Origin: Chrysomallon squamiferum
Lineage: Eukaryota; Animalia; Mollusca
Direction: 5' to 3'
Length of the DNA: 64,000 bases
Assembly: GCA_012295275.1 (NCBI GenBank)
Contig: CM022677.1
Coordinates: 22,258,001-22,322,000 of the forward strand
Part shown: positions 1-27,006 of the stretch, piece after piece
Layout: every line of letters starts with the position of its first letter
How positions within the stretch are numbered: position 1 is the first letter of the stretch
Position numbers and translations under genes: made by a program
Notes under the pieces: generated by a model
Database searches by the model: none
Seen by the model: only the letters and a program-made list of their open reading frames with translations
Told to the model about the DNA's origin: nothing

Positions 1-3000
1 GTGCTCAAGTGACTGGTGAGAATAAAGATACTAAATATTATCGAAACAAATGTCTGTAATTTTTGTCCCTCTGATGATCAGAGTTATTTTTATCGTTCTT
101 GTTGAAGCTCAGTTGTTACAACATCATTCATAATCTCTCTCTCTCTCTCTCTCTCTCTCTCTCTCTCTCTCTCTCTCTCTCTCTCTCTCTCTCTCTCTCT
201 CTCTCTCTCTCTCTCTCTCATTCAGATAATAACTGAGGAACATACACATTTTGATATTTTTGTAACATTATTATTTTGAAAGCATTTACTTGACACCTGA
301 ATTGTTAAGAAATTCATATTGTTTTGTTTTCCTTTTATTCCAGGAGGGTTCAGAAAAGGCTTCTCGAGTCGTAAGTAAGATTAGACATCGATTTTTTTGT
401 TTTCCCTTTTTCTGAACAAAGACAGTAAACAGAAGTATGATTCATATTGAACAGAAGTCTATCTATCTATCTATCTAATTATTAATGAAATGTAAGTAAG
501 AATCCCTCCCACCCCAAAAAAAAAAATAATAATAATAAAAAAAAAAAAAAAAAAAATAAAAAAAATATATAATTAAAAAAGATAATAATATATATAATAA
601 TAATAAAAGAAATAAATAAATAAATAAATAAATAAATAAATAAATAAATAAATAAAAAATAAGAAATACAAAAAATTAATTTATATTGATAAATAATAAC
701 TAATAATATTTTATTTTTGAGTGAAATGAGATAGGAGAATGCAAAACTGATGAAGCTTTTAGTTGCAATAATCTTATCTTATTCGTTAAATATATTATAC
801 ACACATAATTATGTCGAATATCCTCAATATTTTAATTTAAACTATAATTTTTTCTTATTTACTTTGAGTTCACTTCACCCCAGAATTTTTAAGGAATTGG
901 TTTTATTTTATTTTATTTTTTATACCAGGAATGAGGGGTTTTGGAAGTCGGATTCGTAAGTAATATAAAAACATATACAGATATTTCTTTCCTTTTTACT
1001 GCACAAAGACAGTAAAGCGAAGTGTTTCATAAACAGAAAAACCTATGTGATTCACATTTTTAACAGAAAAAAAAAATAAAAAAAAAATAAAAAATAAAAT
1101 AACAACAAAAAAAGCTATAATGGTTAATGAAGTATAAATAATAATAAAAGAAGGAATAAATCAATCAATAAATAAAAAATTAACCGATTGTTAAAAATGC
1201 AGTTACTTAATTGATATTCATAACTAATAATCAACAATATTTTATTTTTGAGTCAAATGTGATACAAGTATGAAATTGCTGAAGCAGTTATTTGAAATAA
1301 TTTTACCTTATTCGTTAAATATATTTGCACATAATTTTGTCAAATCTCTTCCCTATTTTAATTTAATTTAATTTTATTAGTATTTATTTTCTAAATACAA
1401 TATTTTTCTTTAATTTCCTTTCTTAGAATTATAGTTCTTTTTCATATATTCCTTTTCTTTGTTGCTTCTTCCCTCTTGTATCGTTTTTCCTCTTTCGTCT
1501 TTCTTCTTTTTTCTTTTTTATATTTCTCTTCCATCATCTTTACACTTTCTCATTCATTCTGTCTTTTATACAACATATTTTTGTTTATTGTTTACACACC
1601 ACCATTAACGATACTGCGAGAATGCAGCGATTCAAAGGTCAAACTGTGCGAGTTCAAACCCTAATTTTGATCATTCAGACATTCAACATCTTTCTGTACG
1701 TGTTTAATTTATTACAAACATCGCGTCTTTAGCGGACTTATGGAGTAGAAAAGATAGTGCGGCTGATGGAGATCGGGGCTCTGTTTGGGTTTCTATGTTT
1801 GTAAAACTTAAATATACCTTACACTTACTACGTGTTTTATGATGTGTAAAATAAGTTTAATCAGTGAACTGGATATATTTGTAATTGTAATTTAGTAGCA
1901 GGACGTTATCCCTGCTATGTTTGTCGTGGGTACTTATTTGACTGACGTAAACAAAGACTGTGAATTTGTTGAAAACAGTTGTCTGTAATTTGTGTCCGTC
2001 TAATGAGAGGACAACTGCAGTGTATGGACACGTGTTATTGTTCCCTCGGATGTCCGTACAAGACATGCACCACTGCATTTTGTTTGCATTAAAATTTATG
2101 CTCAATATACATATATTTCCTGCTTCAGATGTAAGATTTTCAAACTGATTGCTGGTCACAACTTGTAAATTATCATTTCAGAATTATTTGTATCGCTGTT
2201 GTTGTTGAAGCTCAGTTAATACAAAATCATTCGTTTACTCTCTCTCTCTCTCTCTCTCTCTCTCTCTCTCTCTCTCTCTCTCTCTCTCTCTCTCTCTCTC
2301 TCTCTCTCTCTCTCTCTCTCTCTCTCTGACTGACGAACATACACATTTTGATATTTTTTGTAACATTATTATTTTGTAAGAGTTCACTTCACACCTCAAT
2401 TGTTAAGAAATTCATATTCTTTTATTTTCCTTTTATTCCAGGAAGGGTCGGAAAAGGTTTATCGAGTCGTAAGTAATATTAAAATTATATACAGACCTTT
2501 CACTGTTTTCCTGTTTCTGCAGAAAGAGAGTAAACCGAAGTGTTACATAAACCGAAAAAAGTGCATGTTTCATACGTTTAACAGAAGAAATAATATATAT
2601 ATATATATATGTGTATATATATAATTTTTTTGAGTTTTACGATGTGCAAATTCGGTTTTATTTGGATACATCAATGACCTCGATATACATTAGCAATTGT
2701 AATTTAATGGGAAGCTATATTTGTTTACCTCTGATGAGAGGTTGTTACAACTGCAATGCAGGTACACTTGCACTCTGCCGCTCTGATGTAGTTACAAGAC
2801 AGGTACCATTGTATTTTTTTTGGTAAAAAATCTCTAGGCAAAAAATAAAAAATAAAAAATAAAAAAACCCCATTCTACTTATGATACTAGTTTTAAAACG
2901 TTCATAGTTGGTAAGAACTTATGACATATCATTTCAGAATTATGTTTTTGTTTGATGTTTTTACTGAAGCCCCGTACCTAGAACATCATTCATTAGGAAT

Positions 3001-25300: not shown

Positions 25301-27006
25301 GTAGGTTAGTTGAACGTTGGTTTTTAAACGAGTATTAATTCTGCAATGAATAACGGTTAAGTTCCATTAGTTAATTTCCCCCCCCAGAAATGTTAATAGA
25401 CCAAGCTTAAAAGAAAACCTTTGTAAAAGTAAAGCAGTGTTACATAGTTGTATGCTATTCGTGTGAAGTGTTGGAGTTTTGTTAAGGTAATCAAGTGGAG
25501 GAATTACCTTTGGAATTAGGTAAGAAGCATTTGTCTAAAGAAATCAGCTTCTAATATGATGGTCTATTTTGAATGCTGAATAGTCGCCTGTTTTATATTC
25601 TGAAAACAACAGTATACTTAAAGAACTATACACTCTTCAATTCAGTCTTGTCGGAACCAATGTTTTCACCTAGATGTGGTATCTTTTGTAACAAAAAAAA
25701 AAAAAAAAAAAAAAAAAAAAAAAAAAAAAAAGAAAGAAAAACAAATAGAAAAGAAAAGAGAACAAAAATGAATAAGCTTATGTTATTAGACTTTTCTCAT
25801 TTACGGGTCAGCCAACGATTTGTAAATAGCAGGTGTGTGTGTGTGTGTTTATATAAAATACTGATCACAGAAGAAAGCATATGACATCTTTTTATTGGAA
25901 AAAACCTTAAACTCATAAATTTGCATTGTTATTAAGATTTAATGACACTAAATGTAACTGATCAGCAAATGTCTTATGATTAATACTTATCCATTATGTA
26001 TAATCACATAATCTTTGTCTTATGCAGTTTTTGTTATAATTATTGTACTGTATGTCGCCTTCGTCTTTATTTATGTGAAAAGACTCATAGCTTTTAAAAA
26101 TTCATGTGTCAGAGTTCAGAATGTAATACTCAGGGGTCTGTTGATTTCATGTTTATTATTATTATTATGTTGTTGTTGTTGTTGATGTTTTCTTTTAGAA
26201 TTTATTTTATATAAAGTATTTTATTTTATTTTTATTTTATTTTGTTTTTGTTTCCTAGGTATTTCTGTAGCTGTAGCGATTGTTACGTGTATAGTAGCAT
26301 TTCTTCTGGTTGCAGCTTGGAAAAGGTGATTTGACATTTTTCTTTATTTTGTTTTTTACGATTTTGTTTTTATATGAAACAACATATAGGAAGAAGACAA
26401 TCTGAAATGTCAGCTTCATTTCACAATCCAGTGTTAAGTGTACACCAGCACAAATCAAGAACACGTTCAAGAAAACATCGAAATATATTTAGAAAAAATA
26501 ACCTAATGATATTATACTCTAACCATGAGCAATGTTTTTACGATTACTTATTATATCTAGAATGGTCACTGACAATTTTACAAGTAATAATTATCTAGCA
26601 AACTGTTTCGCAAACATAACACAAATGCTCTTTCTCTCTTTCTTATTTAATAACAACAACAAAATAATAATAATAACAACAACGACAACAACAATAATAA
26701 TAACGTTTGAAATGTATATTATATGCAGTTCCGTGGTTTACTATGTTATTGTATTTGTATTTGTGGATAGCTACACCCGGATACTGTGTTTTACACGTCA
26801 GATATAGAGTTGTACCAGTACTTTAAAGAAATATATAATAAAAATATAAAAAAAAGAAAGTAAATTATAATTTCGTTGACAGGACGAAGAAACTGAAACT
26901 TGCTTATGAAACATTTCATGAGAAAACAAATGAAACAATATCAGAAGAAACTGAAGAGACTGCATCATTTGACAACCCTGCGTTTGAACCTGACAAGCTT
27001 AACTGA
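344..27006 (+). CDS. Micro-exon gene (5' end outside window): type I membrane protein with cationic amphipathic repeat ectodomain, acidic/Tyr-rich and G/S/P linker, TM helix and FDNPAF tail
   Basis: AG/GT-bounded exons: 344-370, 929-955, 2442-2468, 3257-3283, 4545-4571, 5308-5334, 6565-6591, 7330-7356, 8571-8597, 9548-9574, 10774-10800, 11723-11749, 12947-12976, 13603-13629, 14905-14931, 16332-16358, 16944-16958, 17523-17537, 18168-18194, 19134-19148, 19843-19857, 20578-20592, 21314-21340 (weak donor), 21723-21758, 23545-23571, 23910-23936, 24572-24616, 26259-26325, 26883-27006. The first 27 are multiples of 3 and phase 1-1. The joined frame has no stop: x[295 protein letters not shown]. Confidence 0.85.
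18000..23520. repeat. Second family of locally duplicated intron+micro-exon modules (acidic and GSP exons)
   Basis: Block ~18890-19800 recurs at ~20325-21260, and block ~18085-18760 recurs at ~21235-21790. Part of it recurs again at ~23000-23370. Confidence 0.85.
22290..22990. repeat. ~55-58 bp minisatellite with embedded variable (AAC)n
   Basis: About 11 copies of acatagcaaacataccatcaccatttcattatttcacatat(aac)n. Confidence 0.9.
26259..26325 (+). CDS. Transmembrane exon of the micro-exon gene
   Basis: Acceptor tttcctag and donor ag|gtgatt. Phase 1 reading is [22 protein letters not shown](R): about 20 hydrophobic residues followed by a basic stop-transfer. Confidence 0.85.
26883..27006 (+). 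CDS. Terminal cytoplasmic-tail exon (FDNPAF motif)
   Basis: Acceptor ttgacag, and phase 2 matches the TM-exon donor. Reads [41 protein letters not shown]. Confidence 0.8.

Follow-up and report, generated by a model that had tools for sequence, protein, structure and literature searches.

A spliced micro-exon gene concealed in repeat-like DNA, predicted to encode a membrane-anchored protein with a cationic amphipathic rod

Introduction

Seemingly repetitive DNA at the start of a 64,000-nt stretch of contig CM022677.1 (assembly GCA_012295275.1, positions 22,258,001 to 22,322,000, forward strand), referred to below as the window and numbered from its first letter, hides a real gene, spliced from about 25 tiny exons, whose joins are seen in contigs of public sequencing runs. 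The encoded protein is proposed, with chances that appear evenly balanced, to be a type I surface protein formed by a cationic amphipathic rod, an acidic tyrosine-rich spacer, a transmembrane (TM) helix and an endocytic-type tail; such a protein would bind anionic membranes and would vary by duplication of paired exons and by exchange between gene copies. Besides being an RNA-supported sequence-orphan gene concealed in repeat-like DNA, it offers a testable tie between exon length and protein geometry, in which nine codons make 2.5 helix turns and the evolving unit is the exon pair. It also provides a concrete case in which symmetric micro-exons serve duplication rather than free skipping, with consequences for how genes that resemble the micro-exon genes (MEGs) of schistosomes are read in general.

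Exon inventory and reading frame

A splice-site scan of the + strand finds 25 micro-exons between 344 and 24616, each with a pyrimidine tract, an AG acceptor and a GT donor; 18 are of 27 nt, five of 15 nt, and one each of 30 and 45 nt. As a preliminary description made from the sequence alone had stated, all are symmetric (phase 1-1), with lengths that are multiples of 3, and they lead in an open frame into a TM exon (26259-26325, 67 nt, phase 1 to 2) and a tail exon ending in FDNPAF (26883-27006), both of which lie where they had been placed. Once joined, the exons read through 274 codons in the phase-1 frame with a single stop, at the end, while the other two frames hold 8 and 19-21 stops. 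The original count of 27 micro-exons is one or two too high: besides the 25 strong exons there is one candidate at 21314-21340, a 27-nt copy of the exon at 18168-18194 with five differences and the donor GTCAAT instead of GTAAGT, which is likely dead or rarely used, and the frame stays open with or without it. A 36-nt exon class had also been proposed and was not recovered, as none of the 17 stop-free 36-nt AG..GT/GC intervals has a good (consensus) donor.

The scanner returned 25 matches on the + strand of 1-25000, all 25 being multiples of 3, against two on the minus strand (none a multiple of 3), and six and five on the two strands of 27500-64000 (one and two multiples of 3, respectively). 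These counts are descriptive and carry no formal P value, because the scanner was adjusted after the data had been seen (two donor types were added) and many of the exons are duplicates.

The exons, all on the + strand and numbered here E1 to E25, fall into successive blocks. The first twelve are all of 27 nt and alternate between an A type, i.e. E1 (344-370), E3 (2442-2468), E5 (4545-4571), E7 (6565-6591), E9 (8571-8597) and E11 (10774-10800), and a B type, i.e. E2 (929-955), E4 (3257-3283), E6 (5308-5334), E8 (7330-7356), E10 (9548-9574) and E12 (11723-11749), the last of which ends an in-register amphipathic block. Four pairs of them are identical (E4/E10, E5/E7, E8/E12 and E9/E11). The 300 nt surrounding the cationic E1 are 83-89% like other repeat units, and the array very likely extends beyond the upstream edge of the window. 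The 30-nt E13 (12947-12976) breaks the 9-residue register and is followed by three diverged 27-nt exons, E14 (13603-13629), E15 (14905-14931) and E16 (16332-16358), the last exon of the ~1-kb units that bear a (CT)n run. An acidic, Tyr-rich segment is encoded by E17 (16944-16958) and E18 (17523-17537), of 15 nt each, and by the 27-nt E19 (18168-18194), in which a second in-frame acceptor would yield an 18-nt exon at 18177-18194. Three 15-nt exons, E20 (19134-19148), E21 (19843-19857) and E22 (20578-20592), encode a Gly/Ser/Pro stalk; they precede the 27-nt E23 (23545-23571, rich in Ser, Asp and Tyr), the 27-nt E24 (23910-23936) and the 45-nt juxtamembrane exon E25 (24572-24616). A 3' untranslated region (UTR) covers 27007-27480, its end not being fixed; contigs of two runs (X7 and X8, see below) extend to 27480, and AATAAA lies at 27354 and at 27567-27587.

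Splicing evidence from public sequencing runs

The 3' region of the gene is present in nine public runs of one organism, and five of these (X1, X6, X7, X8 and X9) were compared as contigs on 24320-27480 and 11600-13305. Only X9 is recorded as RNA. X7 and X8 are judged RNA-like because of their exon-centred cover and spliced joins, and X6 and X1 are DNA-like. On 24320-27480, cover is centred on exons and the UTR in X7 (11 of 30 bins), X8 (13 of 30) and X9 (6 of 30), as against 28 of 30 bins in X6.

Splicing is settled by a contig joint of GT..AG type in X8, which leads from 11749 (the end of E12) to 12947 (the start of E13), and by loose contig ends that equal the next exons. In X7 and X8, E13 is joined upstream to an E12-type exon and runs on into E14 and the start of E15, the 30 letters agreeing at every position (26 of E14 and the first four of E15). 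Loose ends behind 11754 in X7, X8 and X9 lead from a B-type exon into one of the E9/E11 type, and bear on E8 to E11. Further downstream, the 30 loose letters before 24571 in X8 and X9 equal the end of E23 (its last four letters) followed by E24 (26 letters), 30 of 30, and E25 is found in contigs of X7, X8 and X9, with no difference over 47 letters in one X9 contig. Altogether, at least eight junction types are seen among the 26 introns; all are consecutive and none skips a window exon among the contig matches listed, in which 18 of the 26 introns are unseen. No junction of E1-E7 or of E15-E23 appears among the matches listed for the two stretches, so that E16 to E22 stand on the scan, their junctions not being seen in RNA. 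Contigs drop rare forms, and the four identical exon pairs hide skips of a pair. A processed retrocopy is an unlikely source of the joins, as introns are covered in X6 and X1 (28 and 27 of 30 bins) and the matches listed for these two runs include no such join.

The earlier expectation that spliced transcripts link the micro-exons to each other is borne out for the junction types seen. Their linkage to the TM exon is upheld in part: the TM exon start follows E25 in variant contigs at 11 of 12 loose letters, but the TM end that precedes the tail in the contigs agrees with the window at 20 of 27 nt. The first description is therefore supported in its reading of the region as a spliced micro-exon gene whose product crosses the membrane once.

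A cationic helix whose register is tied to exon length

E1-E12 encode 107 residues, including 42 Lys/Arg, 24 Gly and 11 Ser/Thr, with neither acidic residues nor proline. The hydrophobic moment of this block peaks at 99.7 degrees, a peak that none of 5000 residue shuffles reaches, and when the six repeats are plotted on a wheel of 18 positions, a sector of five neighbouring positions is hydrophobic in 30 of 30 cases, with Gly stripes and Lys/Arg arcs beside it. Individual 18-mers have moments of 0.48-0.62 and charges of +6 to +8, which is the combination of a high moment near 100 degrees and a net positive charge that is expected of lipid-binding cationic helices. The HeliQuest cut-off for such helices is 1.34. 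For these 18-mers the discriminant, calculated by the formula given in PMC10309186, is 2.4-3.2. On these calculations E1-E12 are predicted to form one long, positively charged, membrane-binding helix. Antimicrobial helices and the repeats of apolipoproteins and synucleins are likewise rich in Lys/Arg and Gly, free of acidic residues and provided with one hydrophobic face of high moment. Compared with cationic amphipathic peptides, the helix here is longer, with at least six 18-mers, is tethered by a TM helix and has its register tied to exon length.

The tie follows from geometry. A 27-nt exon encodes nine residues, i.e. 2.5 turns or 900 degrees, and the face therefore turns by 180 degrees with each exon. 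Since each exon is 2.5 turns long, the two types must alternate: hydrophobic residues are encoded by codons 2 and 6 in the A type and by codons 1, 4 and 8 in the B type, and the local phases of 107-138 degrees (A) and 331-334 degrees (B) alternate such that all point to 107-154 degrees, whereas an A+B pair makes 18 residues and five full turns. When exons are removed computationally, the moment of the full chain (0.56) is retained after skips of adjacent pairs (0.55-0.57) and falls to 0.04-0.50 after single skips, the lowest values being central. Single skips within E2-E11 are thus destructive, because the face downstream flips. E13, with its additional codon, breaks the register, and the moments of E13-E16 are weak.

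The duplication history is consistent with this arrangement. Self-alignment resolves 1329-12958 (+ strand) into tandem two-exon (A+B) units of ~2.0-2.2 kb, which arose from older one-exon units of ~1 kb. Two-exon offsets (2041, 2229, 4092, 4385, 6114, 8332 and 10507) show 78-89% identity and one-exon offsets 69-80%, from which the two-exon duplications are taken to be recent and the one-exon ones older. A (CT)n run lies 89-129 nt upstream of 15 of the first 16 exons. Two-exon blocks thus form the unit of recent duplication, which would keep the hydrophobic face continuous. Exon copies diverge as fast as their flanking introns (A, 0.195 versus 0.146; B, 0.136 versus 0.136), and the hydrophobic pattern is retained in all six copy comparisons, with a joint neutral chance of ~3e-4 for a pattern that was defined after the fact. 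Positive selection was considered on pairwise pN/pS values (A, 0.242/0.149; B, 0.146/0.173) and is not accepted as proven, the pairs being non-independent.

A gene of this type could have combinatorial exon skipping as its main function, in the way of a MEG-like diversifier, and the preliminary description had foreseen combinatorial isoforms of this kind; the possibility is now regarded as very unlikely. It would be served by the symmetry of all 25 micro-exons (phase 1-1) and by their agreement with the operational definition of a MEG, skips within E13-E24 would be cost-free as they lie outside the helix, and rare forms would be lost from contigs, the known joins being those in the matches listed. 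Against these stand the absence of a skipped window exon from all eight junction types in those matches, the flipping of the downstream face by single skips in E2-E11, the little sequence variety that skips would add where four exon pairs are identical, and the fact that exon duplication needs symmetry anyway. For the helix block in particular, the geometry, the two-exon duplications and the lack of any skip among the matches listed together disfavour free skipping.

Spacer, membrane anchor and tail

The ectodomain in view contains no cysteine. Beyond the cationic block, E17-E19 contribute seven acidic residues and six tyrosines in 19 residues, and E20-E25 a Ser/Pro stalk. A single hydropathy peak (2.92 over 19 residues) lies in the TM exon, and the basic residues and sorting motifs are on its C-terminal side, which is the pattern of a type I protein. 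The tail exon encodes a basic juxtamembrane run, YETF, an acidic patch and FDNPAF before the stop. YETF belongs to the YxxPhi type, whereas FDNPAF departs from the FxNPxY consensus as a variant of it; three classes of clathrin motif are named in PMC2882754, and NPXF is mentioned for LDLR adaptors in PMC7759532.

Homology queries used the 40-residue tail, so short a query that its negatives are weak. Of seven candidates, none among proteins of 71-2000 residues reached E <= 10, no Pfam family or Atlas match was found for the tail, and a 28-nt tail motif had no exact match in metagenome contigs. One tail match among 1.84 billion representatives (8.8e-05 over 18 residues) is to an unrelated repeat protein of 1617 residues and is rejected. 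The TM segment weakly resembles COX8 (E 0.011, below the cut-off), which reflects generic hydrophobic likeness.

How the protein may work

In the proposed protein, a signal peptide encoded upstream would give an N-out topology, and the outer part likely folds on anionic membranes as one long cationic amphipathic helix. The rod likely binds bacterial or other polyanionic surfaces, the acidic Tyr-rich E17-E19 may mask it during secretion or serve as a spacer, and YETF and FDNPAF would mediate endocytosis. Unequal crossing-over between exon pairs would lengthen or shorten the array and modules would be exchanged between copies, such that the length and sequence of the rod change while its face does not.

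Several points weigh against this proposal. The mean hydrophobicity of the block is low (-0.05 to 0.12), and a glycine content of 22% reduces helix propensity. A test of exon order (44 of 20000) is no independent proof of selection, because alternation is automatic once a two-exon unit duplicates. The 5' end of the gene lies before the window and no signal peptide is within view, and FDNPAF has Phe at the consensus Tyr position. X7 and X8 are labelled 'DNA?'. In X7, X8 and X9 the tail is preceded by a TM end that differs from the window TM exon at 7 of 27 nt, and the window TM exon has no cover in these runs, although gaps prove nothing and are not taken as silence. Finally, E1-E12 contain ten dibasic KR/RR sites, five of them Gly-Lys-Arg, plus one R-x-R-R, and proteolysis is thus allowed.

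The dibasic sites would suit a different protein, namely a membrane-anchored precursor whose cationic block is cut by convertases at KR/RR, or shed, to release short amidated or antimicrobial-type peptides, and this alternative is considered unlikely. The acidic neighbour segment does resemble the anionic pro-pieces of cationic peptide precursors, and schistosome MEG-9, -12, -26, -27 and -28 encode short amphipathic peptides that have been proposed as membrane destabilisers (PMC4671649). All ten sites, however, precede Val or Leu, the helical register is kept across them over six repeats, which cut peptides do not need, and the TM helix and sorting tail are kept as well. Convertases are said to disfavour Val or Leu after the site, a point for which a literature search found no supporting paper.

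Less probable still is a structural, adhesive or gamete-recognition protein with no role towards microbes, whose rod would bind a polyanionic matrix (sulfated glycans, acidic shell or cuticle proteins, or an egg coat) or would pack with itself through the Gly stripes that border the hydrophobic face. Mollusc matrix proteins commonly contain blocks that are acidic and Tyr-rich or rich in Gly/Arg/Lys, and the present protein is low in complexity, fast-evolving and, by the tail searches without a homologue, lineage-restricted. Endocytic-type motifs in both copies of the tail (the second is described below) and a strict one-sided hydrophobic face, typical of lipid-binding helices, argue against such a role.

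A more specific version of the surface protein proposed here is rather unlikely. The gene would then belong to an undescribed family of mollusc surface receptors, in which a tethered cationic amphipathic rod of at least 16 nm captures and internalises bacteria in defence or symbiont handling, paired nine-codon exons offset by half a turn tune the length of the rod, a single skip acts as a face-flipping off-switch, and a duplicated last exon 21 kb downstream provides a second sorting tail. Should the rod bind bacteria, the protein would represent a tethered equivalent of cationic helical peptides and a candidate means by which molluscs capture microbes.

Alleles, paralogues and a second tail

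The contigs contain more forms of the gene than the window does. The TM end that is expressed has no match elsewhere in the window, nor do two further read-derived motifs, and local alignment finds no second TM-like exon in the window (best score 46 of 134). Several observations complicate a simple reading. The variant TM end in X9 precedes a tail identical to that of the window, X9 contains E25 in at least three versions and the tail in two, and a motif search of the window shows that some X9 exons are missing from it. One of these missing exons is a 27-nt cationic exon of A pattern with a GTAAGT donor, which lies in an intron-bearing contig. On account of these other exon sequences, the other TM end and the several tail types, the variation appears allelic or paralogous: the RNA derives from alleles of this gene, from close paralogues or from both, and these have the look of mosaics of each other. 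Contig depths were not used as copy numbers. A loose end before 24574 in X9 reveals a variant transcript with nine extra nt between an E24-like exon and E25, which may be a 9-nt micro-exon or a longer E25 of another allele or paralogue; the motif has 12 window matches against 10.3 expected by chance, and is not located in the window.

It is conceivable, if very improbable, that the copy in the window belongs to a paralogue which is silent or in decay and that the RNA stems from a near-identical sister gene or allele, an explanation that is compatible with the other models. The expressed TM end missing from the window, the variety of E25 and tail types and the window-absent exons of X9 fit such a copy, as do the dead exon copy and the orphan tail that are present here. 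Exact contig matches to E23-E24-E25 (X9, 30 + 47 letters), to E13-E14-E15 (30 of 30) and to the tail (X9, 26881-26988) speak against it, and so does a frame open over 274 codons with its 25 splice sites intact.

Self-alignment detects a second copy of the tail exon at 48383-48500 (+), which has an intact acceptor and a 3' UTR and ends in FDNPVF plus four residues. The region 48323-48904 is 90% identical to 26828-27411 over 592 nt, and the copy extends to 48952. No TM exon precedes it and it adjoins a RING/NHL gene. Six differences that set it apart (at 26979-27000) recur in one X7 contig and in the DNA run X6. The second tail may have been orphaned by a segmental duplication or may serve as an alternative last exon.

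Traces of exon birth and death are visible at 21314-23500, where the weak-donor copy of E19 and a stray acceptor copy at 23460 are found; 21673-22065 and 22875-23429 are duplicated intron units without their 15-nt exon, and 22297-22871 is a 65-nt tandem repeat. In the intron before the TM exon, a hydrophobic run at 26028-26082 (+) follows a CAG and ends in Lys-Arg like the TM exon; it has no GT donor and could be a decayed TM exon or a product of chance.

Comparison with known systems

By the operational definition of a MEG in 10.1101/2020.04.08.031872, the gene qualifies with 25 of its 27 in-window exons, all consecutive. The central coding part of MEGs consists mostly of symmetric exons under 36 nt (PMC4671649), and here exons of at most 36 nt account for 73% of the coding bases within the window, the weak-donor copy included. 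MEGs also encode their signal peptide in a long 5' exon, a part of the gene that would here precede the window. Schistosome and tapeworm MEGs share with it an extended series of symmetric micro-exons set among long introns (10.1101/2023.06.21.545858; PMC4671649), and TM anchors (MEG-14, -29, -32.1 and -32.2) and amphipathic-helix peptides (MEG-9, -12, -26, -27 and -28) occur separately among them. MEGs are small flatworm proteins (the longest of 189 residues) varied by splicing, with mucin-like TM forms and short, secreted amphipathic forms, whereas the present gene, likely of a mollusc, joins a cationic helix of more than 100 residues to a TM helix and tail in a protein of more than 274 residues, with no skip seen among the matches listed. 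Kinship with schistosome MEGs is contradicted by the mollusc-type neighbour gene and by a tail without homologue. The suggestion of an independently evolved MEG-like system fits these same two features, as would a gene poorly covered by annotation; diversification by skipping is the part of it left without support.

The closest architecture is that of SmPoMuc of Schistosoma mansoni, with a 27-bp exon and tandem repeats of ~1 kb separated by GA/CT microsatellites, in a multigene family with recombining and truncated copies that are hard to assemble and annotate (PMC2576457). The layout of 27-bp exon, ~1-kb units and microsatellite is found here too. SmPoMuc encodes the glycosylated mucin repeats of a flatworm parasite (PMC2576457); sequence kinship is not expected, the likeness being one of layout, and the 107 residues of the cationic block, with 42 Lys/Arg, only 11 Ser/Thr and no Pro, do not form mucin-type repeats. 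Unlike SmPoMuc, the present gene would build a cationic amphipathic helix from two complementary exon types in alternation, and the acidic Tyr-rich part, the TM helix and the sorting tail come after it. The bicycle genes of aphids are alike in their independent origin, many small exons of a single phase, fast evolution and invisibility to sequence search, but their internal exons are of phase 2 and encode secreted cysteine-motif effectors (PMC9168663), whereas the open frame here is of phase 1 and the product membrane anchored.

A search of the open-access literature found no membrane-tethered antimicrobial proteins of invertebrates, and none of the open-access papers listed describes this gene or a similar micro-exon gene in molluscs, although subscription papers or the supplementary tables of mollusc genome or proteome papers could hold it as an unnamed model. 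The class of architecture is thus known; the protein and the link between exon pair and helix register appear undescribed.

Neighbouring genes and repeats

Neighbouring genes match RING, NHL, C-type lectin and EGF. Look-alikes of the B-box/NHL neighbour (0.97, 220 of 256 features) belong to clusters dominated by Mollusca, from which the window is read as likely molluscan. Three related genes or gene pieces of RING/B-box/NHL (TRIM-like) type lie on the minus strand at 28192-30116, ~37140-39000 and 50168-51900 and resemble one another at 69-76%; two lie directly behind a tail-exon copy. A C-type lectin exon at ~39970-40190 (-) matches Pfam with E 1.3e-14, and a homologue search with it gave none. 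An EGF exon (E 1.4e-06) lies at 35870-36034 (+), and a Cys-rich candidate exon near 33772-33860 (+). Satellites of 23 and 31 nt, together with a 72-nt (24-codon) repeat in frame within the reading frame of the third NHL gene, occupy 33899-34800, 35054-35584 and 50925-51346. At 53432-57698, a unit of ~1.43 kb is present in triplicate, its copies being 93-95% identical and each with a possible minus-strand exon.

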